Source of the DNA: Candidatus Pacebacteria bacterium GW2011_GWA1_46_10 | Lineage (GTDB): Bacteria; Patescibacteriota; Microgenomatia; UBA1400; PJMF01 | NCBI GenBank assembly: GCA_001002135.1 | Contig: LCLP01000001.1 | Coordinates: forward strand, 361,114-425,113 | DNA: 64,000 bases | Direction: 5' to 3' | Part shown: piece after piece, positions 33,652-60,571 of the stretch | Layout of the letters: each line of letters begins with the position of its first letter | Numbering within the stretch: position 1 is the first letter of the stretch | The notes under the pieces: model-generated | Told to the model about the DNA's origin: nothing | What the model saw: the letters and a program-made list of their open reading frames with translations, nothing else | The model's database searches: none | Translations under genes and position numbers: made by a program

Positions 33652-33711
33652 GCTCTGCCCAGCATTGTAACAAAAACTGATCAGTGCTTGGGTTCTGAGC
33701 CTGAAATAAGC

Positions 33712-33717
33712 TACAAT
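33712..33717 (+). promoter_or_regulatory. candidate -10 hexamer (TACAAT, inside TACAATAGG) 6 nt upstream of GTG 33724
   Basis: gcTACAATAGGggtGTG. The same TACAATAGG nonamer precedes ATG 41293. Confidence 0.25.
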
Positions 33718-33723
33718 AGGGGT

Positions 33724-41026: not shown

Positions 41027-41280
41027 TAATTGGAAACTGAATCACAGGAAGATACCTCGTTTTTTTATTAAGGTGATCTTAAAGTGATTTACGGTATTGT
41101 ACTCTTTTGATATAGATTTATATATACAGAAAAATCAGATTGATTTTTTGAAAAATAATGGAAATATTTTAAAAATAGTTCAGCAAATTTACCACCAGAC
41201 GGTAAATGATTTGATTGGGCTTTTTTTGCTTTTCTGCTTGATCAAACTCGTTGTCAGTTTATCTCGGGGTGAAAAAACAG

Positions 41281-41286
41281 TACAAT
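41281..41286 (+). promoter_or_regulatory. candidate -10 hexamer (TACAAT, inside TACAATAGG) 6 nt upstream of ATG 41293; no Shine-Dalgarno sequence. Candidate promoter of the long plus-strand glycosyltransferase operon
   Basis: The AT-rich 225-bp divergent intergenic region 41027-41250 precedes cagTACAATAGGctcATG. Confidence 0.3.
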
Positions 41287-41292
41287 AGGCTC

Positions 41293-42201: not shown

Positions 42202-42207
42202 TTATTT

Positions 42208-43941: not shown

Positions 43942-43956
43942 TATAATAAAGCCGAC

Positions 43957-44874
43957 ATGGAACACTTAACGACTATCATTGTCAATTACAACACCCCCAA
44001 AGAAACTGAGTTAGCGATTCGCTCGGCGGTTAATGCCACGGCGGAAGATTTTACCCATCAAGTGATCGTGGTTGATAACGGTTCCAAGGAGCCGCTGCGA
44101 CTGCCTAAAGATTTACGGAAAGCCAAAGTAGAATTGATTAGAAGTGAGTCAAATCTTGGTTTTACTGGTGGTAACAACCTTGGGATGAGCCACGCGGTCA
44201 AACAATACCAAACTGACTATTTTTTACTTTTAAACTCTGATGCCATCGTGGAAAAACAGGCCATTCAAGCCCTTTACAATGCACTGAAAGCTGATCCTAA
44301 GACTGGCATTGCTGTATCAAAAATCTACTTTACTCCAGGTTTAGAGTTTCACCGAAAAAGTTATAAAAAGTCAGAGCGAGGAAAAGTGTTGTGGTTTGCT
44401 GGCGGCAGTATTGATTGGGCGAATATAGCCGCTTTTCATCGCGGAGTAGATGAGGTGGATCGGGGACAATATGATGAGCAAAAGAGCTGTGACTTTGCCA
44501 CGGGTTGCGCGCTCTTAGTCAAAAGAGTGGTGACTGAACACGTTGGGATCTTGGATAAACGCTTTTTTTTGTACGCTGAGGATGTTGACTTCAGTTTAAG
44601 AGTGAGAAAGGCTGGGTATAAAATTGTTTTTGTGCCTCGGTCAATAGTGTGGCACATGAATAGCGGTTCGGTGGCTGGCGGAGCTGGTTCCAAAACACAA
44701 CAATATTACCAAACTCGCAACCGCTTACTTTTGGCCGCCAAACACGGTAGCTGGCGCCAGCGTTTAACGGGTTTACGACTAGCCTTTCAAACACTTACTC
44801 GAGGGAATGACGCGGAACGGAAAGGGGTGGTTGATTTCTTTTTACTCCGTTATGGGAAACAGCCAATTGTATGA
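43957..44874 (+). CDS. glycosyltransferase family 2 (rhamnosyltransferase-like)
   Basis: TIIVNYNTPKETELAIRS...VVDNGS...LLLNSDAIVE. Confidence 0.75.
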   Translation: MEHLTTIIVNYNTPKETELAIRSAVNATAEDFTHQVIVVDNGSKEPLRLPKDLRKAKVELIRSESNLGFTGGNNLGMSHAVKQYQTDYFLLLNSDAIVEKQAIQALYNALKADPKTGIAVSKIYFTPGLEFHRKSYKKSERGKVLWFAGGSIDWANIAAFHRGVDEVDRGQYDEQKSCDFATGCALLVKRVVTEHVGILDKRFFLYAEDVDFSLRVRKAGYKIVFVPRSIVWHMNSGSVAGGAGSKTQQYYQTRNRLLLAAKHGSWRQRLTGLRLAFQTLTRGNDAERKGVVDFFLLRYGKQPIV

Positions 44875-45692
44875 AAGTCAACGTCACGGCCATTATTATT
44901 GCTCGCAATGAAGCAGCGATGATTACTGAGTGTCTTCGCACCTTGAGTTGGTGTCGCGAGGTTTTAGTCATTGATGACAGTTCCACTGATCAAACCGCCC
45001 AGCAGGCAGAAAACTTAGGGGCGCGTGTTGTAGAGTTTTCTCATCCCTCATTTGCTCGTAAACGTAATGAAGCGCTCAAACACGCTCAGGGGGACTGGCT
45101 ATTTTATATTGATGCAGACGAGCGAGTGACCCCCACTTTGGCTAAAGAAATTCTGGTTCATATCGAGACTGACGCTGCGCCGGTGCTACGACTGGCGCGG
45201 GAAAACTTTGCCTATGGCCATCTTTTCCAACACGGTGGGTGGCAAAGAGATTTTGTCACTCGGGTGTTTAAAAAAAACGCTTTACAAAGGTGGACGGGTG
45301 AGATTCATGAAAGTCCACAATTTATTGGAGCAGTAAAAACCCTTCGTTCGCCACTATTGCACCTTACGCACCGCAGTACTGAGGAAAACTTACGCAAATC
45401 TGCTGATTGGACTAAATTGGAAGCAGAGTTGTTGTACAAAGCGGGCGAAAAGCCAGTGACGTTTTTTACCCTGCTTCGCAAAGGAGGAATGGAATTTTTC
45501 CGTCGAGCTATTATTCAGCGGGGGTACCGTGACGGTTTGGCCGGTCTGATTGAGGCGTTGGCACAAGGCATCAACCGCGTTACTGTCTATATTCAAGTTT
45601 GGGAACTCCAACAAAAACCACCCTTGTCCGAGCGCTATCAAAAAAAAGATCAAGAGTTGAGGCAATGGTGGCGGAAAGAAAAAGGAATTTAA
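44871..45692 (+). CDS. glycosyltransferase family 2
   Basis: VTAIIIARNEAAMITECL...VIDDSSTDQT...YIDADE. Confidence 0.75.
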   Translation: MKVNVTAIIIARNEAAMITECLRTLSWCREVLVIDDSSTDQTAQQAENLGARVVEFSHPSFARKRNEALKHAQGDWLFYIDADERVTPTLAKEILVHIETDAAPVLRLARENFAYGHLFQHGGWQRDFVTRVFKKNALQRWTGEIHESPQFIGAVKTLRSPLLHLTHRSTEENLRKSADWTKLEAELLYKAGEKPVTFFTLLRKGGMEFFRRAIIQRGYRDGLAGLIEALAQGINRVTVYIQVWELQQKPPLSERYQKKDQELRQWWRKEKGI

Positions 45693-45696
45693 CGGT

Positions 45697-46818
45697 ATGC
45701 GTTTTTGTCTCTATTCGCCTTATTTCCCCAAACACTTTGGCGGCGGAGAAAAATATTTACTTGATGTTGCCCAAGTGCTGGCTCATTATGGGCAGGTAGA
45801 GCTGGCAGTGGCTGGCAGTGAACTTGATGAAGCGAAAGCGCGGCGTATCTTCAAGCAGTACGAACGTTTTATGGGTCAATCGCTTCATCAATTGCGCTTG
45901 GTGAACTCGCCGTTAGGCACCACCGCTTCGTTCTGGCGAAAGCTTCGGTGGACCAGACAATACGACTTGTTGTATTACCTGACCGATGGGAGTTTTTTTC
46001 TCAGTTGGGCTCGGCGTAACGTGATGCATATTCAGGTGCCACTGACTCGAGCCCCGCTTACCCCATGGGAAAGAGTGAAAAGACTTTCTTGGCATTTTAT
46101 TAATACCAACTCTATTTTTACGAAACAAACTGTGGAGAAATATTGGCATTTGCCGGTTAACGCAGTTCATTGGCCAATGGTTGATGTGGTGCAGTTTCAA
46201 CTGTTGTCAGAGCAACTCAAAAAAGAAAATATTATTCTGCACGTTGGTCGTTTTTTTCGGCAAATGCACAGTAAACGACAAGACGTTTTAGTGCGTTTTT
46301 TTGCCCACCTCCTTGAGCGCTATCCTCAGGAGAGTCGTGGGTGGAAACTAGTGCTGGTTGGCGCGGTTGAAGACAGAGAATTTGCCAAAGAAGTGAAAGC
46401 TGCGGCTCGCGGACTACCGGTGACGATAGTTCATAGTGTTTCGCGCTTAGAGCTTGATCGTTGGTACGCTCGAGCTAAGATTTATTGGCACGCGACTGGC
46501 TATGGGGCCTCCGAAGAGAAATATCCAGCGAAGATGGAACATTTTGGTATCAGTACGGTAGAAGCGATGGCCAGTGGAGCGGTGCCAGTGGTGATCGGCA
46601 AAGGCGGCCAGCCGGAAATACTCGGTAAGGAGTTAAAGGAGTTGTTGTGGCAAGATGAAAAAACGTGCCTTGAAAAGACAGTCGAACTTATGAACAATAC
46701 GGCTAAACTCGCTTTACTCGCTCAGAAAGCCCAAGTTCGCTCACAGCGTTTTGGGCCACAGGCGTTTGAAGACAACGTAGTAGCCATGTTAGGCAAATTA
46801 GGGCTTTTGGTGTCATAA
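45697..46818 (+). CDS. glycosyltransferase family 4 (GT-B fold)
   Basis: 373 aa. C-terminal GT1/GT4 signature region (EHFGISTVEAMASGAVPVV) with E-x7-E-like spacing. Confidence 0.7.
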   Translation: MRFCLYSPYFPKHFGGGEKYLLDVAQVLAHYGQVELAVAGSELDEAKARRIFKQYERFMGQSLHQLRLVNSPLGTTASFWRKLRWTRQYDLLYYLTDGSFFLSWARRNVMHIQVPLTRAPLTPWERVKRLSWHFINTNSIFTKQTVEKYWHLPVNAVHWPMVDVVQFQLLSEQLKKENIILHVGRFFRQMHSKRQDVLVRFFAHLLERYPQESRGWKLVLVGAVEDREFAKEVKAAARGLPVTIVHSVSRLELDRWYARAKIYWHATGYGASEEKYPAKMEHFGISTVEAMASGAVPVVIGKGGQPEILGKELKELLWQDEKTCLEKTVELMNNTAKLALLAQKAQVRSQRFGPQAFEDNVVAMLGKLGLLVS

Positions 46819-46821
46819 AGT

Positions 46822-47676
46822 ATGTCAACATCACTTTCACCTGTTTCCGCTGTCATTCCGACCTATAACGGCCGGCGGTTATTGGCAAAGCACCTGCCGG
46901 CAGTTTTTGCTTGTTTGAGCAATGGTGATGAATTAGTCATCGTGGAAGACGCTGGCCCAGATGATACAGTGCCTTGGACAACCAAGCAGTTTCGGTTACG
47001 AGCCGCTCGTGCACCCATTGCCGGCGTGAATGTCTCTCGTGGCAATTACACCAGTGGTCGCAAAAAAATAGCAGTGACCTTAGTCGTCAATCAACAAAAC
47101 CAACGGTTTGGGGAGACCTCGAATCGCGGAGTAAAAGTGGCCAAGCACCCGTTAATTTTTCTTATTAACAGTGATGTGGCCCCCAGAAAGACGGCCTTGA
47201 AGTATTTGGTGCCGTATTTTAAAGACCAGACTGTTTTTGCGGTTGGACTCTTGGAAAATGAACATGGCAAAAAAAGCGGGAAAAATAAATTGTGGTTTGA
47301 AAGAGGTATGTTTATTCATGCCAAGGCAGATAATTTTAAAGCCGGTCCTACGGCGTGGGTGAGTGGCGGCAGTGGTTTGTATAGTCAAGAAAAATGGTTG
47401 GAGATCGGCGGTTTTGACCGACTATTTTACCCGGCGTATTGGGAGGATATTGATCTCTCATTTCAAGCGCGCAAACGCGGTTGGCAAGTGCTTTTTGAGC
47501 CGAAAGCGGTGGTCGATCACAACCACGAAACGACGAATATTACTGTGTTTGGTCAGCGAAAAATGGAACAAATGAGTTGGCGCAATGCCAGTAAGTTTGT
47601 TTGGAAAAATGGAGATTTTTGGCAAAAGTTAGCCCACCTTTTATGGAAACCATACTGGTGGATTATCCGAAGTTAA
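46822..47676 (+). CDS. glycosyltransferase family 2
   Basis: VSAVIPTYNGRRLLAKHLPAV... and a DxD-type region (INSDV). Confidence 0.65.
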   Translation: MSTSLSPVSAVIPTYNGRRLLAKHLPAVFACLSNGDELVIVEDAGPDDTVPWTTKQFRLRAARAPIAGVNVSRGNYTSGRKKIAVTLVVNQQNQRFGETSNRGVKVAKHPLIFLINSDVAPRKTALKYLVPYFKDQTVFAVGLLENEHGKKSGKNKLWFERGMFIHAKADNFKAGPTAWVSGGSGLYSQEKWLEIGGFDRLFYPAYWEDIDLSFQARKRGWQVLFEPKAVVDHNHETTNITVFGQRKMEQMSWRNASKFVWKNGDFWQKLAHLLWKPYWWIIRS

Positions 47677-49278
47677 ATGAAAAAACCGTGGCTACGCTTT
47701 GAGTTGACCAACAAACAATATTGGTGGGGGATAGGAGGAGTATTGTTGTTAGCGGCGGTTTTGCGGTTTTACCAGCTAGGCCAAGTGCCCCATGGCATGA
47801 CGTGGGATGAGGCTGCCATTGGCTATAACGGTTTTGCGATTTTTACTACCCGGCGTGATGAATGGCTTACCCGACTGCCGGTGTCGTTTTGGTCTTTTGG
47901 TGACTATAAGGCACCTCTGGCGATTTATGTGAATGGTCTCTTTACCGCTGTGTTTGGCATGACTTTATGGGCAGTGCGAGTGCCGTTTGCCTTGAGCGGG
48001 GTGGGGGTAGTGCTGGGAATGATTTATTTGACGCGAGTTGTTTTTGAACAAACAACCGAGAAACCCGGACGGATTCGTTTTTTGTCATTAGTGGCTGGTT
48101 TATTAATAGCTCTTTCACCCTGGCACCTGCATTTTTCCCGGATTGGTTTTGAATCAGGGATGGCGTTGTTATTTTACATTTGGGGAGGCTATTTTTTCTT
48201 AAAGGCTTTAACGGTGGGGAAACAGTGGCGAGTCACTGTCGATTTTCTGCTGTCAGTGATGAGTTTTGTGGCCAGTGTTTATACCTATCACAGTGCCAAG
48301 ATAGCGGCACCACTGTTCGTGTTTTGGTTGGTGATTCGGTATCGTCGTCAAGCGTTTAAGTATTGGCAAAATTTTGGGCTAGTTACTGTAGCTGGTCTGT
48401 TAGCTTTGCGTCCATTGATTGCTGACTCCTTTTATGGCAAAGGGTTAGAGCGAGCGGGGACGCTGATTGTTTCGCAAGGATATTCAGTGGCGAAAACAAT
48501 CCAGATTTTCTTGGCTCAATTTGCCACACACTTTTCGGCGTCATTTCTCCTACTGGGTGAGACAACCACTCTGCGCCACGGTGACGGGCGATGGGGAGTA
48601 CTTTTACCAACCACGTTGGTGTTGGTGTTATTGGCAGCGGTGTTTGGTTGGCGGAAAAAACAACTCCTTCAACCCTTTTGGTTTGGTATATGGCTGGTTT
48701 TAATCGGGATTTTGCCGGCGGCGCTGGCCATTGAGGTGCCGCACAGCAACCGCGCTTTACTGGCTCTGCCGGGATTTTTACTGCTGGCGATAGTTGGTCT
48801 GCGGTGGTTAATCACCAATCGATGGGCAGATGAGTGGAAAAAAATGGTGATAGGAGGTTTGGTGTTACTGCATGGTTTGTTTTTTGTCAGTTACCTGTAT
48901 CACTATTACACCTTGTTTGCCGCTCAGAGTGCGGCTGATTTTCAAGATGGCTATTTGGCAGCGTTTCGGTTTGCTCTCCCCTATGAAAGGGGAGAGGAGG
49001 GCAAACGTGAGGTCGATAAAATTATTTTTACCAGCGATTATGGTCAACCGTATATTTACGCGCTTTTTGTGAGACAAACCAATCCTATTTGGTATCAAGG
49101 TGGATCACTGGCTAAATATGAATTTAAAGATGAGGTGACGATCGGGGATTTAGAACGAGAAAATACACTGGTGGTCGCCAGCAACCAGGATGATTTACTT
49201 GGTGCTGGAACCAAGGCGGATAAAGTTATTAATGGCAGTGATGGCTCGCCGCGGTTTAGAATCTACTTACCAAAATGA
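47677..49278 (+). CDS. GT-C membrane glycosyltransferase, ArnT/PMT-like (paralog group A)
   Basis: MTWDEAAIGYNGFAIFTTRRDEWLTRLPVSFWSFGDYKAPLAIYV.... ATGA overlap with the next paralog. Confidence 0.65.
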   Translation: MKKPWLRFELTNKQYWWGIGGVLLLAAVLRFYQLGQVPHGMTWDEAAIGYNGFAIFTTRRDEWLTRLPVSFWSFGDYKAPLAIYVNGLFTAVFGMTLWAVRVPFALSGVGVVLGMIYLTRVVFEQTTEKPGRIRFLSLVAGLLIALSPWHLHFSRIGFESGMALLFYIWGGYFFLKALTVGKQWRVTVDFLLSVMSFVASVYTYHSAKIAAPLFVFWLVIRYRRQAFKYWQNFGLVTVAGLLALRPLIADSFYGKGLERAGTLIVSQGYSVAKTIQIFLAQFATHFSASFLLLGETTTLRHGDGRWGVLLPTTLVLVLLAAVFGWRKKQLLQPFWFGIWLVLIGILPAALAIEVPHSNRALLALPGFLLLAIVGLRWLITNRWADEWKKMVIGGLVLLHGLFFVSYLYHYYTLFAAQSAADFQDGYLAAFRFALPYERGEEGKREVDKIIFTSDYGQPYIYALFVRQTNPIWYQGGSLAKYEFKDEVTIGDLERENTLVVASNQDDLLGAGTKADKVINGSDGSPRFRIYLPK

Positions 49279-50984
49279 AAAAAATTTCTTGGTGGTTGGT
49301 ACTCATTACTCTTATCGCGTTGGCGTTTTTGAGCCGCGTTTTTCGAGTTACTCAGTCCCCTCCCTCGCCATATTGGGAAGAAGTAGCGCTTGGTTATGAC
49401 GCGTATTCAATTTTACAGACGGGGAGTGATCATCATGGCAACTGGTGGCCGGTGATTGCGTTTGAATCATTTGGTGACTGGAAGCCAAGCGGGTTTTTTT
49501 ATACGCTTGTCCCGTTTATCAAAGTATTTGGGCTGACTGTTTTTGCGGTTAGGTTACTTTCAGTCGTATCGGGAGTGGGGATAGTTGTTGGCGTAGGGGT
49601 GTTGATGCGTCAATATACAGAGCGACTTTTCAAGGCGCCAGAGCGGCGAACCTTGATTTTACTGACTCTTTTCTTGGCCGCCGTATCGCCATGGTTAATT
49701 CAATTTGCTCGAGCAGCCTGGGAAGTAAACTTGGCGACGTTGTGGTTGGTTTGGGGGGTGGTTTTTGGGCAGCAAGCGGTCAGCGTAGTCCAAACTCAGA
49801 AACTGCGATTTCTCTGGTTTACTGCTAGCATTTTGTTGCTGTTTGCCGCGATGTACACGTATCACAGTGCTCGATTGCTGGCGCCAGCGGTGGGGGGAGT
49901 GATTGCTTGGCAGTTTTTTCAAAAAGATCTTAAAGCTCGACGAAAAAATATTTGGTTGGTTGGGTACATTTTACCGCTGTTTTTGACGGCTTTCTTGTTG
50001 AGGCCGTTTACCAGCGCACTGGGGACGCCTGCCTTGGGTCAGCGCTTGGCAGAGACGAGTGTCTTGAGTGACTTGTCGGTCATTGAGGAGAGTAATCATT
50101 TGAAAGAATTAGCTGGTTACTCGCCACTCTCGCGAGTCATTTACCATCGTTACGTCCTTTTTGGTGGACGAGTAGCCAGTCAGTTTTTCTCCCACTTTCG
50201 ACCCGACTTTTTATTCATCACTGGAGACGCTAATGGCCGTCACTCCACTCAGTATTTTGGGTTATTGTATCCTTTTGAAATAGTGTTTTTGACGATTGGT
50301 GGTTGGTGGTTGGTTGGCCAAATGAGAAAAGAACATCGACAACTAGTAGTTGTTTGGCTGGTGGCGGGTATTTTACCCTCAAGTTTCACGACCGGCGCGC
50401 CGCACGCCTTGCGAATTTTACCCACCGCGCCGTTGTTTTTGTTGGCGAGTGCTTTAGGTGTTTGGTTAACCAGTTATTGGTTGGCGCACCAAGCCAGTAT
50501 GTTATGGCCACCTGTGAGACGGCTCAAAATGATGTGGTTGGGCTGTTTTGTGTTGATCTATGCGGGCTTTTTTGTAGCTTTTTACCGGCATTTGTTGGTG
50601 GTTTACCCCAAACGCTTTGCCAATGAATGGCAGTACGGTTATCAGGCAATGGTGGAGGCAGTGGAACGGGCACGAACAGAAAACCCTGATTTACCAATTT
50701 TTATTACTCGTGAGCAAGGCAGGCCAGCCATGTATTACTGGTTTTACACTCAAACTGATCCGCGACTGGTTCAAGCAGCAGACGCCACAGTCAAACAAGA
50801 TCAAGGTGAATACTTAGAGTTTCAAAACCTGCATTTTGTACGCAGTTTAGACGAGGTGACTACTACTCCAGCTCTGGTGGCTGGTTCTCCAGGTGAGGTA
50901 GCTAAGTTTGACGGTCTTGAAGCGGTCACTACCATCGCTGATTTTGACGGTAAAGTAATCTGGCAGGTAGCACGAATCGATTAG
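49275..50984 (+). CDS. GT-C membrane glycosyltransferase, ArnT/PMT-like (paralog group A, tandem duplicate)
   Basis: PYWEEVALGYDAYSILQTGSDHHGNWWPVIAFESFGDWKPSGFFY.... Confidence 0.65.
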   Translation: MKKISWWLVLITLIALAFLSRVFRVTQSPPSPYWEEVALGYDAYSILQTGSDHHGNWWPVIAFESFGDWKPSGFFYTLVPFIKVFGLTVFAVRLLSVVSGVGIVVGVGVLMRQYTERLFKAPERRTLILLTLFLAAVSPWLIQFARAAWEVNLATLWLVWGVVFGQQAVSVVQTQKLRFLWFTASILLLFAAMYTYHSARLLAPAVGGVIAWQFFQKDLKARRKNIWLVGYILPLFLTAFLLRPFTSALGTPALGQRLAETSVLSDLSVIEESNHLKELAGYSPLSRVIYHRYVLFGGRVASQFFSHFRPDFLFITGDANGRHSTQYFGLLYPFEIVFLTIGGWWLVGQMRKEHRQLVVVWLVAGILPSSFTTGAPHALRILPTAPLFLLASALGVWLTSYWLAHQASMLWPPVRRLKMMWLGCFVLIYAGFFVAFYRHLLVVYPKRFANEWQYGYQAMVEAVERARTENPDLPIFITREQGRPAMYYWFYTQTDPRLVQAADATVKQDQGEYLEFQNLHFVRSLDEVTTTPALVAGSPGEVAKFDGLEAVTTIADFDGKVIWQVARID

Positions 50985-51001
50985 GTTGGCTATAATTTTA
51001 C

Positions 51002-52753
51002 TTGATGATTACAGAAGTTCTCACGCAAGCACTGAGCAGTGCCCTGGCTGATTATGGGGTAAAAAAGGCTGTCGTTAGTCTGGAGCATCCAGTGGAAGAA
51101 CAATTTGGTGACTGGAGCAGTAACGCGGCGCTCCAATACATCAAGCAGGTAACACAGTTTGCTCAACCCAAAGAGTTGGCGACTGCTTTAGTGGGAAAAC
51201 TTCAACAAACTTTAAAGACGAATCCTGCCATCGAATCAGTCAGCGTGGCTGGACCTGGATTTATCAACTTTACCTTAAGTCAATCATATTGGCTAAGCCA
51301 ACTGGAGCGGCTGGGAGCGGTCAAAGACGCTCGAGAACTTATCGCGCACAGTGGCGCGGGAAAAACAGCGATTATAGAGTACTCATCGCCAAACATTGCC
51401 AAACCATTTACAGTTGGTCACTTGCGCTCGACGATCATTGGCGATGCTATTGCCAATCTCTATGAAGCGTTGGGTTGGCAGGTACATCGAGATAACCACG
51501 TTGGTGACTGGGGGACTCAATTTGGCAAACTGTTGTATGCGCTCACTACCTGGGGAGATAGAGTAACCATCGCCAAATCAGCCCGACCAATCAAAGCACT
51601 GGTGGAGCTCTACGTTCAGTTTCATCAGGCAGCGGCGGAAAATCCAGCATTGGAAGATTACGGCCGGGAGTGGTTTAAAAGACTAGAGGATGGTGACAAA
51701 GAAGCGCGTGAATTATGGCAGTGGTGTGTTGATCTCTCTTGGCAGGAGTTTGATCGGATCTACCAGCAGTTGAATATCAAGTTTACCGAAAATAATGGGC
51801 GGGGATACGGTGAATCGTTTTTTGAGAACAGAATGGATCAAGTAATCGAGATTCTTGAAGAAAAACTCCCTCAAGAGCAGCTGGAAACTCATGGGGGATA
51901 TTATGGCGAGGGCGAGGATGGGGCCAAGCTGGTCTTTTTTAAAAATGAAGCACTCCCCTCTTTAATGATTCTTAAAAAGGATGGTGCCACACTGTATTCC
52001 ACCCGTGATTTGGCCACTGATTACTTTCGACTCCAACACTATGACTCCCCTACCCTCATCATTAATGAGGTGGGAGCAGAACAAACTTTATACTTCAAAC
52101 AGCTTTTTAGGGTAGAGGAAATGTTGGGGTGGTACCAATCGGGACAACGGGTGCATGTACGTCATGGTTTATATCGTTTTAAAGACAAAAAAATGTCTAC
52201 TCGGAAAGGGGAGGTGATTTGGTTGGAAGAAGTCATTCATGAAGCTCATAAGCGCGCACTAGTTTTGTCCAAAGGGAATGAAGCGAGTGCGGCGGCAGTG
52301 GCGATTGGGGCGTTGAAATGGAACGACTTGAAAAGTGAAGCGGCTAGAGACATTGTCTTTGATTGGCAAGCAATGCTGAGTATGAAAGGAAACTCCGGTC
52401 CTTACGTGCAGTACGCAGCGGTCAGAGCTCAAAGTGTATTGGCTAAGGCAGCTAAAACGAAGACTGCCTTGTCAAATACCTATCAATTTAATCCTCAAGA
52501 AATGGTCCTAATACGTCAGCTCGATCGTTTTGCTGAGACGGTTGAGCAAGCGGCAGGTGAGTACGCCCCGCATCATTTGGCAAGTTTTTTATTTGAACTG
52601 GCACAGCGTTTTAATGTTTTTTATAACCACCAGCCGATTCTTAAGGCTCAAGCAGAGAAACGGGTGGTACGCTTATCACTTACTCAAGCGACTGCTCGCA
52701 TATTAAGAGCTGGTTTGAAGTTGCTTGGAATCGACACACCAGAGGAAATGTAG
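51002..52753 (+). CDS. argS: arginine--tRNA ligase
   Basis: YSSPNIAKPFTVGHLRSTIIGDAIANL (HIGH-region equivalent), HVGDWGTQFGKL, and the KMSTRKG (KMSK-type) motif. 583 aa. Confidence 0.9.
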   Translation: MMITEVLTQALSSALADYGVKKAVVSLEHPVEEQFGDWSSNAALQYIKQVTQFAQPKELATALVGKLQQTLKTNPAIESVSVAGPGFINFTLSQSYWLSQLERLGAVKDARELIAHSGAGKTAIIEYSSPNIAKPFTVGHLRSTIIGDAIANLYEALGWQVHRDNHVGDWGTQFGKLLYALTTWGDRVTIAKSARPIKALVELYVQFHQAAAENPALEDYGREWFKRLEDGDKEARELWQWCVDLSWQEFDRIYQQLNIKFTENNGRGYGESFFENRMDQVIEILEEKLPQEQLETHGGYYGEGEDGAKLVFFKNEALPSLMILKKDGATLYSTRDLATDYFRLQHYDSPTLIINEVGAEQTLYFKQLFRVEEMLGWYQSGQRVHVRHGLYRFKDKKMSTRKGEVIWLEEVIHEAHKRALVLSKGNEASAAAVAIGALKWNDLKSEAARDIVFDWQAMLSMKGNSGPYVQYAAVRAQSVLAKAAKTKTALSNTYQFNPQEMVLIRQLDRFAETVEQAAGEYAPHHLASFLFELAQRFNVFYNHQPILKAQAEKRVVRLSLTQATARILRAGLKLLGIDTPEEM

Positions 52754-52777
52754 CGGTAATTCTGCTACGATGGTGGC

Positions 52778-54445
52778 ATGCCAAATTGGCGTTTTCTGTT
52801 AGCAGTGGGGCTTGTCTTTTTATTGGCAATTGCTTTGCGCTTCTATCTTTTGGGGAGAGTGCCGGTTTCTTTGTATTGGGATGAAACAGCGATTTTAGTT
52901 GATGCTCGTAGCATCGCCGCTACTGGTCAAGACATGCACGGCAACTCTTGGTTGCAGGCAATTCTTCCGTCGTATGGGGACTATAAACTGCCGGTGTTGA
53001 TTTGGTTGGCGAGTTTAAGTGTCAAGCTACTGGGCGCTACTGAGTTGGCTGTTCGTCTGCCGAGTGCCTTGAGTGGAATCTTGACCATGATTTTTGGAGG
53101 GTTGATTGCCGGGGAGTTGTTGGTTTCGACTAAAAAATTGAGGTGGTGGCTGTTTGTGCTCACTGCGGCGGTGATCGCGATCGCGCCCTGGAGTGTGTTA
53201 TTTTCTCGGACCGGTTTTGAGGGTCACGTGGGTCAGTTATTGTTGGCAGTAAGTATTTGGTGTGCCCTGAAGGCCAGAAAGCAATGGGGCTGGGGGATTT
53301 TAGCGGCGCTGATTGGCGGCCTGGCCACCTACACGTACTTTTCGATTCGTTTTGTGTGGCCGGTGGTGTTTTTCTTAGTGGTAACTCTTTTTACCGTCAA
53401 GAAAACTTGGCGCTCGTTTTTACTTCAGCTTGTTGTGCCGTTCTTACTCTACGCTGTGAGTCTGCGGCCGATGTATCAGTCGCCTTTGTATGAGGCAAGC
53501 AACCAGTTTCGTTTGAGTGCTACTTCTGTTTTGAATATGGCTGATTGGCCAATCGTCGCTAATGAATATAAACTGCCAGCCGGCAACACCCTGCTTGATA
53601 AAGCGATGTACCACCCATGGGTCTTGATTAGCCGAGAATTGGCGAAAAATTACGCCGACAACTTATCATTTGATTTTCTGTTTTTAACTGGTGATCCTAA
53701 TTTACGGCATGGGACGGGCCGCCACGGACTCTTTTTATGGCCGTTTTTCCTGCCTTTGGTGTATGGTTGGTACACCCTGTTTCCCAAGTTTTGGCGGCAG
53801 GGCGTATTACTGTTGGGTTGGTGGCTGGTGGCTTTACTGCCGGCCTCGGTGCCGGAAACGACTCCTCATGCCTTGCGCTCGCTTAATGCCTTAATGCCGC
53901 TTTCTCTCGTCATCGCCTGGGGCGTGTGGCAGTGGTGGCGGGTGACCTGGCAAGCTCGTCAACGCCAATGGTTGGAAAAAGGAATTTTTTTGGTTTGGAG
54001 TATGGCAGTCGGTTTAGCGCTTTTCGATTTTGTCACGTATTATTTTCAAGTGTACCCAGCCTTGTCAGCCAAAGAGTGGCAAGACGGATATAAAGCAGTG
54101 GCCCATGAAGCGTGGGTTAATCGAGCAGATATGGATGTAGTTTGGGTAGAGCCGTTTGACCCTCGTTTTTACTTGTGGTTGTTGGCATATGAAGTGCCGG
54201 TACAAGAGTATCGTCAAATCTCTTTTAATAATTACATGCCCGAAGCGATTGAAAACATTCGTTTTCGCTGGTTTGACTGGGGAAAACTGCCGACTTTAAG
54301 TGAAAAAACCATGCTGTTGGCTCGCAAAGACTTGATTGACTGGAATCTGGAGACTGCTGCCTATCCGCCGCGGTGGTATAAACCACTAGTTCGTGCTGAT
54401 AAAGTGGCAGAGTTTGCCGCGGTGTACTTTGAGAAAGTTGAGTGA
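52778..54445 (+). CDS. GT-C membrane glycosyltransferase, ArnT/PMT-like (paralog group A)
   Basis: LYWDETAILVDARSIAATGQDMHGNSWLQAILPSYGDYKLPVLIW.... Confidence 0.65.
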   Translation: MPNWRFLLAVGLVFLLAIALRFYLLGRVPVSLYWDETAILVDARSIAATGQDMHGNSWLQAILPSYGDYKLPVLIWLASLSVKLLGATELAVRLPSALSGILTMIFGGLIAGELLVSTKKLRWWLFVLTAAVIAIAPWSVLFSRTGFEGHVGQLLLAVSIWCALKARKQWGWGILAALIGGLATYTYFSIRFVWPVVFFLVVTLFTVKKTWRSFLLQLVVPFLLYAVSLRPMYQSPLYEASNQFRLSATSVLNMADWPIVANEYKLPAGNTLLDKAMYHPWVLISRELAKNYADNLSFDFLFLTGDPNLRHGTGRHGLFLWPFFLPLVYGWYTLFPKFWRQGVLLLGWWLVALLPASVPETTPHALRSLNALMPLSLVIAWGVWQWWRVTWQARQRQWLEKGIFLVWSMAVGLALFDFVTYYFQVYPALSAKEWQDGYKAVAHEAWVNRADMDVVWVEPFDPRFYLWLLAYEVPVQEYRQISFNNYMPEAIENIRFRWFDWGKLPTLSEKTMLLARKDLIDWNLETAAYPPRWYKPLVRADKVAEFAAVYFEKVE

Positions 54446-56004
54446 TGAAAAAACATTTTTGGCTGGCATTAATTTTGGCAGTGGCTTTGGTGATGCGTGT
54501 CTGGCGAGTTGGGAATTTGCCGGCGATCTTAAACCGTGATGAAGCAGCGGTAGCTTATAACGCGTATTTGCTGATGGAAACGGGGAAAGATGAATGGGGT
54601 CGTCGTTGGCCGTTAGCGCTAGAGTCGTTTGGCGACTATAAACTGTCAGGGTATTCGGTGGTTTTAGTCCCGTTTTTTCAGCTGTTTGGGCTTCATGATT
54701 GGGTGGTGCGTTTGCCATCGGTGATGGCCGGTACAGTCTTGGTTTATTTATTGTATTTATTGGGAAAGAAACTGAAGTTAGGTGAACAGTACGCGCTGTT
54801 ATTAGCTCTCTTGGCAGCGGTGGCACCAGTCTTTGTTTTTTACTCGCGAATGGCCTTTGAGGCCAATCTCGGCTTAACCTTTTTTGTTGGCGCACTGCTG
54901 GTGTTGTGGTGCTTAAAGGACCAGACAAAAAAATGGCAGTATCCGCTTTTATTCCTCTTGCTTTTGTCGGCGGTCTTGACGTATAACACGCCGCTTTTAT
55001 TGTTGCCGTTAGTCATGGTGTGGGTTGGTTTGACCTATGACTGGCGTCAATGGGGGAAGCTAGTCGCCACGGAAGGCATTTTGGGGGGAGTATTGCTGTT
55101 TGGGGTGCTCGCGCTTTGGCCAGTCACTGCTCAAAAGAGCGGTATTACCATTTTTACCGATGAGACGGTTTGGAGTCAGTGGACGATTTTTCGCGGGTCA
55201 TTGTCACTGTTCTGGCAACCACTGATCGGCAGCCGGTCTTTTTATTACCTGGTCATTATGCTGCAAAACTTTTTCAATTCTTTTTCTTTCAACTTTCTCA
55301 GTTTAAGGGGTGGGACGCATCCTTGGCATAGTTTGCCGACAACTGGTCACTTGGCAACTGTTACTTATTTACTGGGGTTGTTGGGTATTTTCAAGACGAG
55401 TGCTACTGTTTGGCTTGGTCGGCGAAAGCTTCGTGCGATCAAAAGCGAGCTTGGTCTGCTGTTTTTGCTGATTGCCTCACTGCTGCCGGCCATTATCACT
55501 GTTGACGCGCCGCACGCTACCAGAAGTCTCCTCTTTTTTGTCTTGTGGCATGTCTTGGCGGTATGGGGGGCGGTCTGGTTAATCAAGGTATTTTTTCAAA
55601 AGAATAGCAGTGCCGCGTGGCGATGGCTACTTTTTTTAGTGGTTGTTGAGGGGCTATTGCATGCCTATCAGTTATTTGGCTTGTACCCCAATCAACAGAC
55701 GGTTTTTCAACCTGGTTTTGATCAGGTAATTCAACGAGTTGAGCGAGAGCACGGGGCGGAGAACGTGGCGATCGTTGATCCGACCGGGTATTGGTATATT
55801 TTAACAGCTTGGTACTTGCAGCTTTCGCCGGCCGTGTATTTTGAAACTGCTGTCCGACAACTACCAGACCCGATTGGTTTTCGCTATGGCGAGCGTGTCG
55901 GCCGGTACCATTTTATTGCTCGGCCCGATGACCGCTCAAGTGGGGAGACAGTCTTGGTACAATGGTCTGACCAAGCGAGTGCTTGGCAAATCGAGGAGAA
56001 CTAA
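54442..56004 (+). CDS. GT-C membrane glycosyltransferase, ArnT/PMT-like (paralog group A, tandem duplicate)
   Basis: LNRDEAAVAYNAYLLMETGKDEWGRRWPLALESFGDYKLSGYSV.... ATGA overlap with the upstream paralog. Confidence 0.65.
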   Translation: MMKKHFWLALILAVALVMRVWRVGNLPAILNRDEAAVAYNAYLLMETGKDEWGRRWPLALESFGDYKLSGYSVVLVPFFQLFGLHDWVVRLPSVMAGTVLVYLLYLLGKKLKLGEQYALLLALLAAVAPVFVFYSRMAFEANLGLTFFVGALLVLWCLKDQTKKWQYPLLFLLLLSAVLTYNTPLLLLPLVMVWVGLTYDWRQWGKLVATEGILGGVLLFGVLALWPVTAQKSGITIFTDETVWSQWTIFRGSLSLFWQPLIGSRSFYYLVIMLQNFFNSFSFNFLSLRGGTHPWHSLPTTGHLATVTYLLGLLGIFKTSATVWLGRRKLRAIKSELGLLFLLIASLLPAIITVDAPHATRSLLFFVLWHVLAVWGAVWLIKVFFQKNSSAAWRWLLFLVVVEGLLHAYQLFGLYPNQQTVFQPGFDQVIQRVEREHGAENVAIVDPTGYWYILTAWYLQLSPAVYFETAVRQLPDPIGFRYGERVGRYHFIARPDDRSSGETVLVQWSDQASAWQIEEN

Positions 56005-56795
56005 TGATTTCGGTTGTGTTAGCCACCTATAACGAAGCAGCTAATTTGGCTCGCTGTTTGGTGTCGGTCGACTCCTTTGCCGATGAAATTATTGTGGTGG
56101 ATGGCAGTTCAACTGATGACACTCGCCGCATTGCTAAAAAATTTGGCGCCAAAGTAATCAAGACAACGAATAAATTAAACTTTCATATCAACAAACAAAT
56201 GGCGATGGACCGGGCAAAAGGCGAGTTGGTGTTGCAGATTGACGCTGATGAAGTGGTTGATGAGGAGCTGGCGCGGTTTATCCGATCGGTGGAGAAACAA
56301 CGCCGAAAGTCGTCGTTGGCGACGGCGGCTTGGTGGATCAGGCGAAAAAATCTTTTTCTTGGGCGCTGGTTGACGAAAGGAGGTCAGTATCCTGATCCAG
56401 TAATCAGACTCTATATCAATGGACGAGCCAAGTTACCCCAAGCTGATGTGCACGAGCAAATGGCAGTGGACGGGCCGCTTGGCTGGGCTAACGGTCACCT
56501 GCAACACTATGCCAACCCGACTTTTACCGATTACGTGCGCAAGTTTAATACCTATACTTCTTTTCGAGCACAGTTGTGGGCTAAGGAGGGCTGGCGATTA
56601 TCACTATGGCGGTCGGTCTACTACTTACTGTGGAAGCCAATCGAGATCTTTCTTTCCCTTTACGTGCGTCATAAAGGATTCTCTGATGGGTACCCAGGTT
56701 TTGTGTTTGCTCTAATGAGTGGTCTTCACTACCCAGTGGCTTACCTTAAATGGTGGGAAATAAAACAAGGAAAAAGGCGTGAAAGTACGTATTAA
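56004..56795 (+). CDS. glycosyltransferase family 2
   Basis: MISVVLATYNEAANLARCL...VVDGSSTDDT...IDADE. ATG 56004 forms a TAATG overlap with the upstream stop; Shine-Dalgarno sequence GAGGAG. Confidence 0.75.
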   Translation: MISVVLATYNEAANLARCLVSVDSFADEIIVVDGSSTDDTRRIAKKFGAKVIKTTNKLNFHINKQMAMDRAKGELVLQIDADEVVDEELARFIRSVEKQRRKSSLATAAWWIRRKNLFLGRWLTKGGQYPDPVIRLYINGRAKLPQADVHEQMAVDGPLGWANGHLQHYANPTFTDYVRKFNTYTSFRAQLWAKEGWRLSLWRSVYYLLWKPIEIFLSLYVRHKGFSDGYPGFVFALMSGLHYPVAYLKWWEIKQGKRRESTY

Positions 56796-57816
56796 CGTAA
56801 CACCGCTCTCCTCGGGCCACGCCATCAGGGGGGTGGGTATGTATACTCGTTTTCTCAGTGAGGCTTTGGAGCGCCAAAAAGGTATTGAGATCTTTCACTC
56901 CGGTTTGGAGAACCAACCAACTAAGGTGGACGTTGTTCACTATCCTTTTTTTGACCTTTTTTTTCCAACACTGCCAATTCTCAAAGGGACGAGCACCGCG
57001 GTCACGATTCACGACGTTATTCCGTTGTTGTTTGCTGATCACTATCCGGTAGGAAAAAAAGGTACTTTAGGTTTAGCCCACCAAAAACTCGCTCTCAAAA
57101 CTGTGGCAGCAGTGATTACCGATTCCGAAGTTTCCAAACGCGATATTATCACTCACCTTGGAGTGCCAGCGGAAAAAATACATGTGGTTTATTTAGCTGC
57201 TAACCCGTTTTTACACCAAATCAGCGGGAAAGCCTTGATCGCTGCTTCGCGCAAGCTTCATCTTCCTAAGCGCTATATCTTGTACGTTGGAGACATCAAC
57301 TACAACAAAAATCTGCCGCAACTCATTAAAGCACTGAAATTTTTGCCGCCTGAACTCAAATTGATCTGTGTTGGCAAGAATTTTACGCCGCAGCCGATTC
57401 CTGAGTGGCAAGCCATCGAGGCTCAAGTAGCTTTGAGCAATGTCGGCAAACAGATCGTGTTTATGCCCCAAGTTTTGAGCGATGATTATGAGGCGCTCTC
57501 GGCTGTTTACTCTGGGGCGGTCGCCTATGTTCAGCCATCGCTCTATGAAGGTTTTGGTTTACCGGTGCTGGAAGCCATGCGCTGCGGCACACCGGTGGTG
57601 GCGGCCCGAAACTCTTCTTTGCAGGAAATTGGTGATGAGGCAGTGCTTTTTACTGGCAATACAGCCGAAGAATTAGCTGGCAGTATTGAAGAATTATTAA
57701 GTTTTTCCAACCACCAGCGCGTCCAACTCATCAAAAAGGCTTCTCATTGGGAGCAACAATTTACTTGGGATAAGACGGCTCAGCAAACGATTGAAGTGTA
57801 TAAAAAAATGCTATGA
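56779..57816 (+). CDS. glycosyltransferase family 4 (GT-B fold)
   Basis: 345 aa. C-terminal EGFGLPVLEAMRCGTPVV GT4 signature. Confidence 0.7.
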   Translation: MKVRINVTPLSSGHAIRGVGMYTRFLSEALERQKGIEIFHSGLENQPTKVDVVHYPFFDLFFPTLPILKGTSTAVTIHDVIPLLFADHYPVGKKGTLGLAHQKLALKTVAAVITDSEVSKRDIITHLGVPAEKIHVVYLAANPFLHQISGKALIAASRKLHLPKRYILYVGDINYNKNLPQLIKALKFLPPELKLICVGKNFTPQPIPEWQAIEAQVALSNVGKQIVFMPQVLSDDYEALSAVYSGAVAYVQPSLYEGFGLPVLEAMRCGTPVVAARNSSLQEIGDEAVLFTGNTAEELAGSIEELLSFSNHQRVQLIKKASHWEQQFTWDKTAQQTIEVYKKML

Positions 57817-59447
57817 AAAAGAGGTTGTTCTTTATTATTGCTGTTTTGTTACCGCTACTAGCGCTGACTCGACCATACCTTCGAGCAGGTGTGCCATACA
57901 CTCATGACGGTGAAAACCATTTAGCTCGTTTTGCCAACTATAAAGTGGCGGTCAGAGAGGGCCAAGTTCCCCCTCGCTTTGCCCCGAATTTAATGAATCA
58001 TTACGGCTATCCAGTATTCAACTATAACTATCCACTGCTTAATATGCTGTCACTGCCACTCAGTATCATTGGCATCCACTACGAACTCACTTTTAAGTTT
58101 CTAATGATTGGTGGTTTAGTGCTTGGAGCTTGGGGGATTACTCGTTGGTTGGCGGTGAGTGGTTTTTCTCGCCGTGCCAAGTTATTTGCGGTTGGCACTT
58201 ATATGCTGGCGCCGTTTACCGTGAACCTTATTTTTGTGCGCGGTAATATTGGGGAGGTTTGGGCCTTGGCGCTTTTCCCGTGGCTACTGTGGTTTTCCAA
58301 GATGATTAAACAACGAACAAGAGTGAGTTGGTTGGTCAGTGTGTCACTGATTACAGCTTTTTTGCTGTCGCACAACGTCTCGGTACTTTTTGGTGGAGTG
58401 TTGTGGTTTCTTTATACTCTCAAAGAATTCGGCAAGCAGAAAGCATTATGGAAAGTCTGGTTGGGTCCGGTAGTAATCTCAGTGTTACTCAGTCTGTGGT
58501 TTTGGTTGCCGGCTGTGGCTGAAAAAGGGTTTATCGTGGTGGATGATGCCAACTTGAGTTCGCAGTTTGCCACCCATTTTGTTCAGCCGTTACAGCTTTT
58601 GGCCTCACCCCTGCGGTTTGGTTATTCGTTTGAAACAGCGGTTGACACCATTAGTTTTTCGGTTGGGGCAATTGGTTTTGCCAGTTTAGTACTGATGACG
58701 GTATGGTTACTGCGATTGCGCAAGACGGACCGCCGTCACCTTGATCGGTACCGATTATGGTTTTTTGTCATTGTTTGCTGGGGATTGCTCTTTTTGCAGA
58801 CTGACTTTTCGTACCAAGTGTGGCGCTTCCTGCCACTCGTGGCATTCATTCAGTTTCCATGGCGTCTGACATTATTTTTTGTGGTGTTAGTTTTACCGCT
58901 GGTAGCGACACTGTTTACTCACTTAAAAAAAGTCCGTTGGCTATTGTGGGCACTCTTTTTCGGGCAGCTGATGGTGTTGTGGCGCTTACAACCAATCGCT
59001 TTTTTGCATCAGACGCCAGAACAATATGATCTTTTTCCACAAAGCACGAGTACTCTCAACGAAAATTTGCCTAAAGGATTTACGTATTTACTGATTGGTG
59101 ATTGGCAACCGGCCCCAAGCGCACTGGTGGGTGAATTTACAGCCAACGTGGCTGATTGGACAGGGTCTCGTCGGTACTACCACCTCAATGTAACTCAAGA
59201 TGCCTTGGTGGTGGAACCAACGATGTATTTTCCGGGTTGGGAAACGACGATCAACGGGGAGTTGATAGAGTATGTTGATGTGAGTGAAGCTGAGGGACGA
59301 CTAGGTTACCGCTTGCCAGCAGGTGAGTATGAGGTCGAAACCCGTTTTACCCAAAATACTTGGCCAAGAATGGTGGGCAACAGTCTCAGTGTGCTGGCGG
59401 TAGCAATCTGGGGGTGGCTGGTATGGCGAGAAAAACAAGTCTCCTAA
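57813..59447 (+). CDS. large polytopic membrane protein with C-terminal domain (GT-C-like, uncharacterised family); paralog of 33724..35502
   Basis: YTHDGENHLARFANYKVAVREGQVPPRFAPNLMNHYGYPVFNYNYPLLNML shares the H-x(n)-R...GYG/YGYP-F-FY-PL pattern with the 33724 gene. At least 10 TM helices. Confidence 0.45.
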   Translation: MKKRLFFIIAVLLPLLALTRPYLRAGVPYTHDGENHLARFANYKVAVREGQVPPRFAPNLMNHYGYPVFNYNYPLLNMLSLPLSIIGIHYELTFKFLMIGGLVLGAWGITRWLAVSGFSRRAKLFAVGTYMLAPFTVNLIFVRGNIGEVWALALFPWLLWFSKMIKQRTRVSWLVSVSLITAFLLSHNVSVLFGGVLWFLYTLKEFGKQKALWKVWLGPVVISVLLSLWFWLPAVAEKGFIVVDDANLSSQFATHFVQPLQLLASPLRFGYSFETAVDTISFSVGAIGFASLVLMTVWLLRLRKTDRRHLDRYRLWFFVIVCWGLLFLQTDFSYQVWRFLPLVAFIQFPWRLTLFFVVLVLPLVATLFTHLKKVRWLLWALFFGQLMVLWRLQPIAFLHQTPEQYDLFPQSTSTLNENLPKGFTYLLIGDWQPAPSALVGEFTANVADWTGSRRYYHLNVTQDALVVEPTMYFPGWETTINGELIEYVDVSEAEGRLGYRLPAGEYEVETRFTQNTWPRMVGNSLSVLAVAIWGWLVWREKQVS

Positions 59448-60571
59448 ACACGCTGTTGATTACCGTCATAGTCTGGCGGTTAGCTTTGCTGGGGTTGGGC
59501 GCAGTGGGTGATCACTTTTTGCCGTATAACCCTTCTTTTCCTTACGCGCGAGAGTTGTTAGCGAAGCTGAACCTACCTCGTTGGCTCTATTCCTGGGGAA
59601 GTTTTGATGGTGTGCACTACCTAGGGATTGCCCAAAACGGTTATACAAACACGGCGTTTATTCAAGCTTTTTTTCCGGTTTTTCCCTTGCTGTTGCGAGT
59701 CTTTGCCAATCCTTTACTCTCAGGTTTGGTGCTCAATGTACTGCTCATTGTATGCTTGGCGTTAGTGTGGCATCAGTTAGTACTGCTGGATCAGACCCAA
59801 AAACAAGCTCGATGGTCGCTCCTGGCGCTGTTGCTGTTTCCGACCAGTTTCTTTTTTGGGGCACTCTATACTGAAACCTTGTTTTTACTACTCGTTATCG
59901 GCTCACTGCTGATGGCTCGTCGTAAACAGTGGCAGTGGGCCGGCAGTTTGGCCGCCGTCGCTTCAGGCACCCGTATTATTGGTATTTTTCTCTTACCAAC
60001 ATTACTGGTTGAGCTTTGGTGGCAGCGCAGGCCAAGCTCGGTTCAGCAGTTTTTGACCAAAAATACGCGCGAGTTCAAGTATATTGCTTTGTCGCTCTTG
60101 GGTTTGGCAGTGTATATGTTTTATCTCTGGCTCACCTTTGCTGATCCACTCTATTTTCTGCACGTGCAGAGTGAATTTGGCAGTGGCAGGCAGGAGTCAC
60201 TGATACTTTTTCCGCAAGTAATCTGGCGGTATGTGAAGATTCTCTGGACGGCACGGCCTTTTGATTGGAAATATTTTGCCTATGCGCAAGAGTTTATTTT
60301 GTCGCTAGGGGTGTTGAGCGGACTTTTGATCTGGTTTAAAAAAATTCGTCCTTCATATCTGATATTTTCACTGTTGGCGTTTTTCTTGCCGACGGTAACA
60401 GGTACCCTGACCAGTATGCCACGCTATGTGCTGATGTGTTTTCCGATTTTTCTTTTACTTGGCGAGCTTTTCGCCAAGAAACCGCTGTGGCGCGCTTTTC
60501 TCCTGACAGCCTCCGTAATTTTGCTTATAATCAACACCGTCCTGTTTATTCAGGGATATTGGGTAGCGTAA
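59423..60571 (+). CDS. PIG-V/Gpi18-like (GT76-type) mannosyltransferase-family membrane protein
   Basis: WGSFDGVHYLGIAQNGYTNTAFIQAFFPVFP resembles the W-D-x-x-H/W-F-L-x-IA-x-x-GY loop motif of PF04188 proteins. About 8 TM helices. ATG 59423 is preferred over the track's 59360. Confidence 0.45.
   Translation: MARKTSLLNTLLITVIVWRLALLGLGAVGDHFLPYNPSFPYARELLAKLNLPRWLYSWGSFDGVHYLGIAQNGYTNTAFIQAFFPVFPLLLRVFANPLLSGLVLNVLLIVCLALVWHQLVLLDQTQKQARWSLLALLLFPTSFFFGALYTETLFLLLVIGSLLMARRKQWQWAGSLAAVASGTRIIGIFLLPTLLVELWWQRRPSSVQQFLTKNTREFKYIALSLLGLAVYMFYLWLTFADPLYFLHVQSEFGSGRQESLILFPQVIWRYVKILWTARPFDWKYFAYAQEFILSLGVLSGLLIWFKKIRPSYLIFSLLAFFLPTVTGTLTSMPRYVLMCFPIFLLLGELFAKKPLWRAFLLTASVILLIINTVLFIQGYWVA

Follow-up and report, generated by a model that had tools for sequence, protein, structure and literature searches.

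Five GT-C glycosyltransferase genes in a Pacebacteria envelope-glycan locus are probably old, separately conserved paralogs

Do clustered glycosyltransferase genes in a Pacebacteria genome represent a family that is still diversifying, or a set of enzymes that parted long ago? This question is raised by a 64,000-nucleotide stretch from the groundwater candidate phyla radiation (CPR; Patescibacteria) organism Candidatus Pacebacteria bacterium GW2011_GWA1_46_10 (contig LCLP01000001.1, positions 361,114 to 425,113), the whole of which we analyzed and call the window. It carries five genes for GT-C glycosyltransferases on the + strand: paralog A, which is ArnT/PMT-like (42208-43941, 577 aa), B (47677-49278, 533 aa), C (49275-50984, 569 aa), D (52778-54445, 555 aa), and E (54442-56004, 519-520 aa). 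The gene for arginyl-tRNA synthetase (ArgRS; 51002-52753, + strand; Pfam tRNA-synt_1d, DALR_1, and Arg_tRNA_synt_N) lies between C and D. The five genes belong to an operon-like array of about 20 kb, within an envelope-glycan region at about 19-62 kb, and a clade of the Pacebacteria shares the gene order of this array. A first-pass annotation had read B/C and D/E as two recent tandem-duplicate pairs in a diversity-generating glycosyltransferase family. Our analysis leads to a different answer: A to E probably represent five subfamilies of one ArnT/PMT-like GT-C family, each of them old and conserved in its own set of orthologs, that serve as fixed specialized transferases in a conserved envelope-glycan locus.

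The open reading frames (ORFs) that had been named were all present at their coordinates on the + strand, and their products proved to be a single family. A to E are homologous over nearly their full length, with BLASTP E values of 1e-9 to 1e-42 and hhalign probabilities of 99.8-100% between profiles of their orthologs. They had been said to share a motif in the first external loop (EL1). As literally written, this motif was found by regular expression in none of the five: A reads RDEAS, C reads WEEVA, B and D are without G-x-x-W-P, and S-[FY]-G-D lies one residue away from where the pattern puts it. The relaxed form [WR]-[DE]-E-x(28-29)-S-[FY]-G-D-[WY]-K was found by the same means in all five (RDE...SFGDWK in A, WDE...SFGDYK in B, WEE...SFGDWK in C, WDE...SYGDYK in D, and RDE...SFGDYK in E). 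Nine further membrane or GT-C-like proteins of the window lacked it. Because the five proteins are homologous, the shared motif reflects common descent and not a chance coincidence. The residues invariant across 103 family members include the Glu of [WR]-[DE]-E; in B numbering, E45, D76, K78, E159, and R359 are invariant. When the ortholog groups of B to E were aligned, 25 columns held a single residue throughout, E45, D76, K78, R155, E159, H356, and R359 among them, and 7 of the 25 fall in EL1. The full catalytic residue set is kept by all five paralogs. In C the motif begins WEE (residues 34-36), with Glu in place of Asp, and this form is kept in the two orthologs that we read (L009 5484-7133 and L024 5369-7069). 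Thus, the view of A to E as GT-C paralogs with an acidic catalytic loop-1 motif was borne out by homology, by fold models, and by the relaxed motif.

The sequences speak against recent duplication of these genes. Global identity among the five paralogs is only 20.7-26.6%, and inter-paralog DNA repeats are limited to stretches of at most 45 nt, 72-83% identical, over motif-coding regions. We found no simple-sequence tracts and no repeats able to drive variation. The adjacent genes are not sister pairs either. In BLASTP comparisons, B-C (137 bits) scored lower than A-C (148) and C-D (149), and D-E scored lowest of all (50); the remaining pairs were A-D at 130, A-B at 128, B-D at 124, A-E at 112, C-E at 79, and B-E at 75. 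Profile-profile scores gave a star-like pattern with C at its center: C had its highest scores to A, B, and D, and the lowest-scoring pairs were D-E (226) and B-E (222). These scores point to C as the most central and slowest-diverging member. We then built a neighbor-joining tree of 29 sequences with 100 bootstraps. Each paralog, with its orthologs, formed its own clade in 100/100 bootstraps, while B and C grouped as sisters in 7/100 and D and E in 1/100. Thus, neither adjacent pair is set apart from the other paralogs by closer kinship, which refutes recent tandem duplication by the criterion that the first-pass annotation had itself named. We also considered duplication of a two-gene block, in which B-C gave rise to D-E. 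The data gave this candidate no support: B+D was recovered at 70% bootstrap but C+E at only 1%, A+E was recovered at 90%, and the profile scores are star-like.

Orthologs in other genomes place the duplications far back. Using ArgRS as the synteny anchor, we fetched 30 loci from species-representative genomes. In six of them (L007, L008, L009, L010, L021, and L024), ArgRS is 58-65% identical to that of the window, and wherever the contig reaches, the gene order is GT2-GT2-GT4-GT2-B-C-ArgRS-D-E-GT2-GT4-YfhO-like-membrane protein-epimerase. Each of these loci has a single ortholog for every one of B to E, at 56-61% identity for B, 47-55% for C, 52-57% for D, and 47-49% for E; over seven loci, the range is 41-61% for B orthologs, and for C orthologs it is 42-55%. 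In L018 and L025, which are more distant, the left half of the array is still present. ArgRS, a housekeeping gene, stands between C and D in L007-L010, L018, L021, L024, and L025 as well. The order of the GT2 and GT4 genes at 41251-47676 is kept in related loci, and the downstream order (GT2-GT4-YfhO-like-membrane protein) is kept in L008, L009, L010, L021, and L024. In more distant CPR genomes (ArgRS about 50% identical; Levybacteria, Roizmanbacteria, and others), the array does not adjoin ArgRS. Every locus that covers the positions of B to E has one copy of each, so copy number in related loci did not bear out the idea of diversity generation. An exhaustive search with B returned 6,970 cluster representatives at E <= 1e-3. 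Among the best 150 of these, 141 were clearly of the B type as opposed to that of any other paralog, each in a distinct 50%-identity cluster. Taken together, the one-to-one orthologs, the clades found in 100/100 bootstraps, and the 141 B-type clusters indicate that the duplications are older than the radiation of this clade of Pacebacteria.

Among the five, A alone varies in presence. Its orthologs in other Pacebacteria are 60-69% identical. Its syntenic position, between a GT2 gene of the 41251 type and one of the 43957 type, is occupied in L010 and L021, and A is absent there in L007 (2840-2971), L018 (981-1059), and L025 (1437-1453). We observed a second difference between loci. In L009 (8709-9773) and L024 (8792-9865), C and ArgRS are separated by an inserted gene whose product, of about 355 aa, is predicted to be a lipoprotein. 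This product begins with a signal peptide and lipobox, after which comes a linker rich in Thr, Pro, and Ser, and from its sequence it could be a glycosylation substrate. It has no homolog in the window.

We asked whether the C-terminal domains behave differently from the rest of these proteins. They had been described as differing, and they are indeed the most divergent part between paralogs, at 11-21% identity versus 22-29% for the membrane part. However, they are homologous and conserved within orthologs. Full-length profile alignments of the paralogs run into these domains. When the domains were aligned alone, hhalign gave probabilities of 50-94% for pairs among A to D and for C-E, and no match for B-E, A-E, or D-E. 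Even so, the models of B and E, the worst hhalign pair, agree in the succession of their elements: alpha, beta, alpha, alpha, beta, then 3-4 strands. Within ortholog groups, the C-terminal domain is 44-66% identical, and among B orthologs it is more conserved than the membrane part (66% versus 50%).

We measured the ratio of nonsynonymous to synonymous substitution rates (dN/dS) in each domain of D and E from the closest orthologs available, L008 and L021, which share about 85% amino acid identity. A comparison of close strains was impossible: the six contigs with an identical B match the window at 99.95-100% identity. For D, dN/dS was 0.077 in the transmembrane (TM) part and 0.093 in the C-terminal domain; for E, it was 0.117 and 0.063, respectively. 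These ratios are approximate because dS, at 0.6-1.2, is near saturation. Both domains of D and E are under purifying, not diversifying, selection. Seventeen columns are constant inside each group yet different between groups, and 6 of the 17 lie in the 65-residue EL1, beside the catalytic motif. Judged from the alignment, these columns fit an old subfunctionalization of donor, acceptor, or linkage specificity. The suggestion that the paralogs differ in acceptor or linkage specificity is a reasonable one.

What kind of enzyme is this family? AlphaFold2 models of B (predicted local distance difference test [pLDDT], 94.3; predicted template modeling score, 0.94) and E (pLDDT, 91.6) share one topology. 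In these models, TM1 is followed by EL1, which consists of two juxtamembrane helices and a small beta-hairpin and carries the DE and G-D-x-K residues; after EL1 come about 10 more TM helices, a second helical external loop, and a C-terminal alpha/beta domain of about 110 residues. In both, the juxtamembrane helix that comes first after TM1 opens with [WR]-[DE]-E, and about 11 TM helices are predicted before the C-terminal domain, which in B is extracytoplasmic and spans approximately residues 426-533. An external loop of about 55 residues is built of short helices. On these models, B and E have the GT-C fold (GT-C_A class). The best Foldseek match of B was ArnT (5ezm; E = 1.8e-7, TM-score 0.53), followed by STT3, AglB, PglB, and Pmt4; structural matches also include ALG9, ALG12, AftA, AftB, AftD, and Emb.

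The sequence comparisons gave the same best relative. Searched against all PDB chains, the family profile matched ArnT 5ezm alone (E = 1.5e-4), over TM2-TM6 only, and a single-sequence PDB search with E gave no match. With hhalign, the family profile matched E. coli ArnT locally, at 9% probability. Because this match is weak, we turned to the motifs themselves, by eye and in the HMMER alignment. In the latter, the invariant Lys of the family aligns to the Lys of ArnT EK-P. By eye, the N terminus of E. coli ArnT (PDETRY...YFEKP...LFGANNFGVR) is collinear with the family pattern [WR]DE...GD[WY]K[LA]P...LFGLxxWxVR, at similar spacing. Since the motifs are collinear and the Lys is aligned, the loop-1 motif of the family is the ordinary EL1 signature of ArnT/PMT-type enzymes. 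The five genes encode members of one ArnT/PMT-like GT-C family, a kind of enzyme that is already known.

These observations suggest how A to E may work. Each enzyme would have about 11 TM helices and an EL1 in which [WR]-[DE]-E, with its invariant Glu, and G-D-x-K are collinear with the DE and EK-P of ArnT. It would take its sugar from a polyprenyl-phosphate-sugar donor, which would be synthesized on the cytoplasmic side before being flipped to the outside. A candidate maker of this donor, judged from its sequence, is a putative polyprenyl-phosphate hexose synthase (24107-25282, - strand; Pfam Glycos_transf_2 and GtrA_DPMS_TM), which matches Pyrococcus DPMS 5mlz over its full length (E = 4e-42) and also matches ArnC and GtrB. 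The sugar would be transferred outside the membrane to a wall-linked glycopolymer, a lipid-linked glycan, or a surface protein. A glycopolymer or lipid-linked acceptor would be built by the neighboring GT2/GT4 enzymes, a Wzx-type flippase (35499-37001), and an LCP ligase (32497-33651, - strand). The five enzymes would differ in acceptor site or linkage, as set by paralog-specific residues flanking the EL1 motif and by the C-terminal external domain. In this scheme they would form a fixed series, every member adding one defined residue, and would not replace one another as variants.

Known systems share some of these features and differ in others. ArnT (lipid A 4-amino-4-deoxy-L-arabinose transferase; GT83, COG1807; 5ezm and 5f15) likewise has a C-terminal external soluble domain after its last TM helix, and its EL1 motifs are collinear with those of A to E: DE, then (E/D)-x?-K-(P/L), then LFG...VR. 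Its donor is an undecaprenyl-phosphate-sugar made by the neighboring GT2 enzyme ArnC, and the window has a DPMS/ArnC-like homolog. However, structure-based identity to ArnT is only 12-14%, and the five paralogs stand in one operon-like array where ArnT is one gene. ArnT has 13 TM helices (PMC7801869), versus about 11 predicted in the A to E family. The acceptor would have to differ as well, since, as far as we know, lipid A synthesis is not expected in CPR bacteria such as this host.

Two other kinds of system invite comparison. Serial GT-C sets that draw on one lipid-linked donor (ALG3/ALG9/ALG12 of the endoplasmic reticulum; mycobacterial EmbA/B/C, AftA-D, PimE, and Mpt) also comprise several anciently diverged paralogs per organism, with each enzyme dedicated to a single linkage or acceptor and supplied by a synthase for the polyprenyl-phosphate-sugar. 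Unlike these enzymes, A to E are clustered in one conserved operon-like array and are much more similar to one another than the ALG or Aft enzymes are. In three-component extracytoplasmic glycosylation systems (GtrA/GtrB/Gtr*, the CsbB/YfhO type of Gram-positive bacteria, and GT136), a GT2 polyprenyl-phosphate glycosyltransferase and a flippase act with a GT-C, which modifies the completed glycan on the outer side of the membrane (PMC11127046, PMC8035078). The window likewise has a GT2 fused to a GtrA-like domain, together with YfhO/PTPS-related proteins. However, Gtr* is accessory, often phage-borne, and strain-variable, whereas B to E are core, syntenic, and single-copy. The locus is not a system of a new kind.

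Several points weigh against the proposal that A to E are fixed specialized transferases, or limit its detail. The Pfam model PMT_2 matched D (30.9 bits) and E (37.9 bits) above its cutoff of 26.1, but B (21.8 bits) fell just below it, and A and C had no PMT_2 match. In NCBIfam, none of A to E matched an equivalog or ArnT; E reached 50 bits to Agl23 against a cutoff of 126. Structural similarity was nearly equal for PMT, ALG12, STT3, and ArnT, and so no specific function can be transferred from them. We infer the donor, acceptor, and linkage of every member. The neighbor-joining tree is crude and leaves the deep branching order among A to E unresolved. Finally, the GT2 that is fused to B in some genomes (see below) resembles glycan-extending GT2 enzymes more than donor synthases of the DPMS/GtrB type.

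Could A to E be protein O-glycosyltransferases? In this reading they would act, as PMTs do, on Ser/Thr-rich surface proteins and not on wall polysaccharide or a lipid-linked glycan. The Pfam matches, to the PMT_2 and PMT models, favor it, and so does the architecture of about 11 TM helices read from the models, the number that PMTs have. The lipoprotein of L009 and L024, with its Thr/Pro-rich linker, lies inside the locus, between C and ArgRS. The product of the GT2 gene that overlaps the end of E (55983-56795, + strand) had as its best solved-structure matches GmaR (E = 1.3e-13) and SunS, not polysaccharide GT2 enzymes; by the NCBIfam description, SunS-family enzymes are peptide S-glycosyltransferases. 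However, in canonical GT39 PMTs the large external loop between TM7 and TM8 contains a MIR domain, and Pfam reported a MIR domain in none of A to E, which have a C-terminal alpha/beta domain instead. Identity to PMTs (GT39; Pmt1-Pmt2 6p25/6p2r and Pmt4 9e61) is 11-12%, and ArnT, STT3, and ALG12 score almost as well. Moreover, the LCP ligase, the Wzx flippase, and the many GT2 and GT4 genes of the locus are typical of wall glycopolymer assembly, and the lipoprotein is absent from the window. We therefore regard protein O-glycosylation as possible but doubtful.

We also considered a reading in which neighboring, translationally coupled genes (B and C, D and E) specify the subunits of an obligate hetero-oligomer; yeast Pmt1-Pmt2 and mycobacterial EmbA-EmbB are of this kind. 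Each pair would then be one enzyme, which is compatible with five old, fixed transferases. The ATGA overlap that had been noted between B and C could be read in the sequence. An ATGA overlap had also been noted between D and E, and this one was not there: the junction is GAGTGATGAAA, in which E starts either at GTG 54442, with a GTGA overlap, or at ATG 54445, sharing one base with the TGA of D. The gene call in the GenBank assembly is ATG at 54445. The B/C overlap is not conserved, with gaps of 14-190 nt in L009, L010, and L021. From 41251 to past 61496, every long ORF is on the + strand with its ends abutting or overlapping, and genes for cytoplasmic GT2 and GT4 glycosyltransferases are interleaved with A to E. 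Since nearly every gene in the array abuts or overlaps its neighbor, coupling is not specific to these two pairs. Furthermore, because all five proteins keep the full catalytic residue set, none looks like a noncatalytic partner. We consider obligate hetero-oligomers unlikely. A scan for promoters and terminators gave a result no better than that for shuffled sequence.

A related proposal concerns the GT2 gene directly upstream of B (46822-47676, + strand, 284 aa; Pfam Glycos_transf_2). Its product is cytoplasmic, and the gene abuts B with no gap, TAA then ATG. In L018 (4034-6565, 844 aa) and L025 (4331-6763, 811 aa), this GT2 and the B ortholog are one in-frame ORF, and the same full-length GT2-GT-C fusion (795-903 aa) accounts for 12 of the best 150 representatives of the B family. 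The recurrent fusion indicates that this cytoplasmic GT2 is functionally linked to B. The PDB profile matches of the B-fused GT2 cover only its N-terminal 50 residues, chondroitin synthase excepted, and its NCBIfam matches are generic. The fusion, together with the B-C and D-E adjacency, could reflect a physically coupled assembly line in which a lipid-linked intermediate is handed across the membrane within one complex, joining a cytoplasmic GT-A domain with one or two external GT-C active sites. We know of no such cytoplasmic/external coupling described for ArnT/PMT-like enzymes, and we rate it as a quite improbable extension.

The weakest alternative is the one with which we began, that B/C and D/E are two recent tandem-duplicate pairs with fast-diversifying C-terminal domains in a diversity-generating family; the adjacency, common orientation, and overlap of the genes and the divergence of the C-terminal domains speak for it, but we judge it highly improbable given that B-C and D-E are 21-27% identical, that neither pair are mutual closest relatives, that D-E has the lowest BLASTP and a near-lowest profile score, that bootstrap support is 7% for B+C and 1% for D+E, that DNA similarity is limited to short motif-coding stretches free of variation-driving repeats or tracts, that each of B to E has a positional ortholog in six other species-level genomes, and that dN/dS is 0.06-0.09 in the C-terminal domains of D and E.

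Recent duplication would have implied rapid diversification of surface glycans in a CPR bacterium. What we find is the reverse: a Pacebacteria clade with small genomes keeps a fixed set of at least 4-5 specialized ArnT-like GT-C enzymes under strong purifying selection, which implies a complex and conserved extracytoplasmic glycan. To our knowledge, CPR cell-surface glycobiology is almost unexplored, and our literature search for GT-C expansions in CPR found nothing specific. The conserved locus and the GT2-GT-C fusion, which links a cytoplasmic step to an external one, are concrete targets for heterologous expression.

The genes around A to E complete the envelope-glycan region. Pfam and NCBIfam identify GT2 genes at 41251-42201, 43957-44874, and 44871-45692 and a GT4 gene at 45697-46818, all on the + strand. 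Downstream of the GT2 gene at 55983 are, also on the + strand, a GT4 gene (56779-57816), a gene for a YfhO/PTPS-related GT-C-like membrane protein (57813-59447), and a gene for another membrane protein (59360-60571). To the left, genes for sugar-nucleotide dehydratases, epimerases, and one dehydrogenase lie at 25296-32325. The putative donor-synthase gene at 24107-25282 overlaps the start of a GT-C gene with a PMT_2 match (22558-24144, - strand), and the two look like a compact donor-synthase/flippase-like/GT-C module.

We also observed that the window has at least 7 further GT-C-like or YfhO/PTPS-related membrane proteins. At least 9 further large membrane proteins are encoded in a region of about 45 kb, several with PMT_2 or YfhO/PTPS_related matches: at 19009-20649, 20559-21818, 22558-24144, and 39857-41026 on the - strand, and at 33688-35502, 36998-38569, 38569-39915, 57813-59447, and 59360-60571. 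The relaxed EL1 motif of A to E was in none of these nine. The region is thus a heavy investment in GT-C-like enzymes. Outside it, a 270-aa ORF (11469-12281, - strand) contains the Ser/Thr/Pro-rich stretch SGLGNTTGKTTSTPTAGVPTPPPATPEKMP, the sole such stretch among the ORFs of at least 100 aa in the window.

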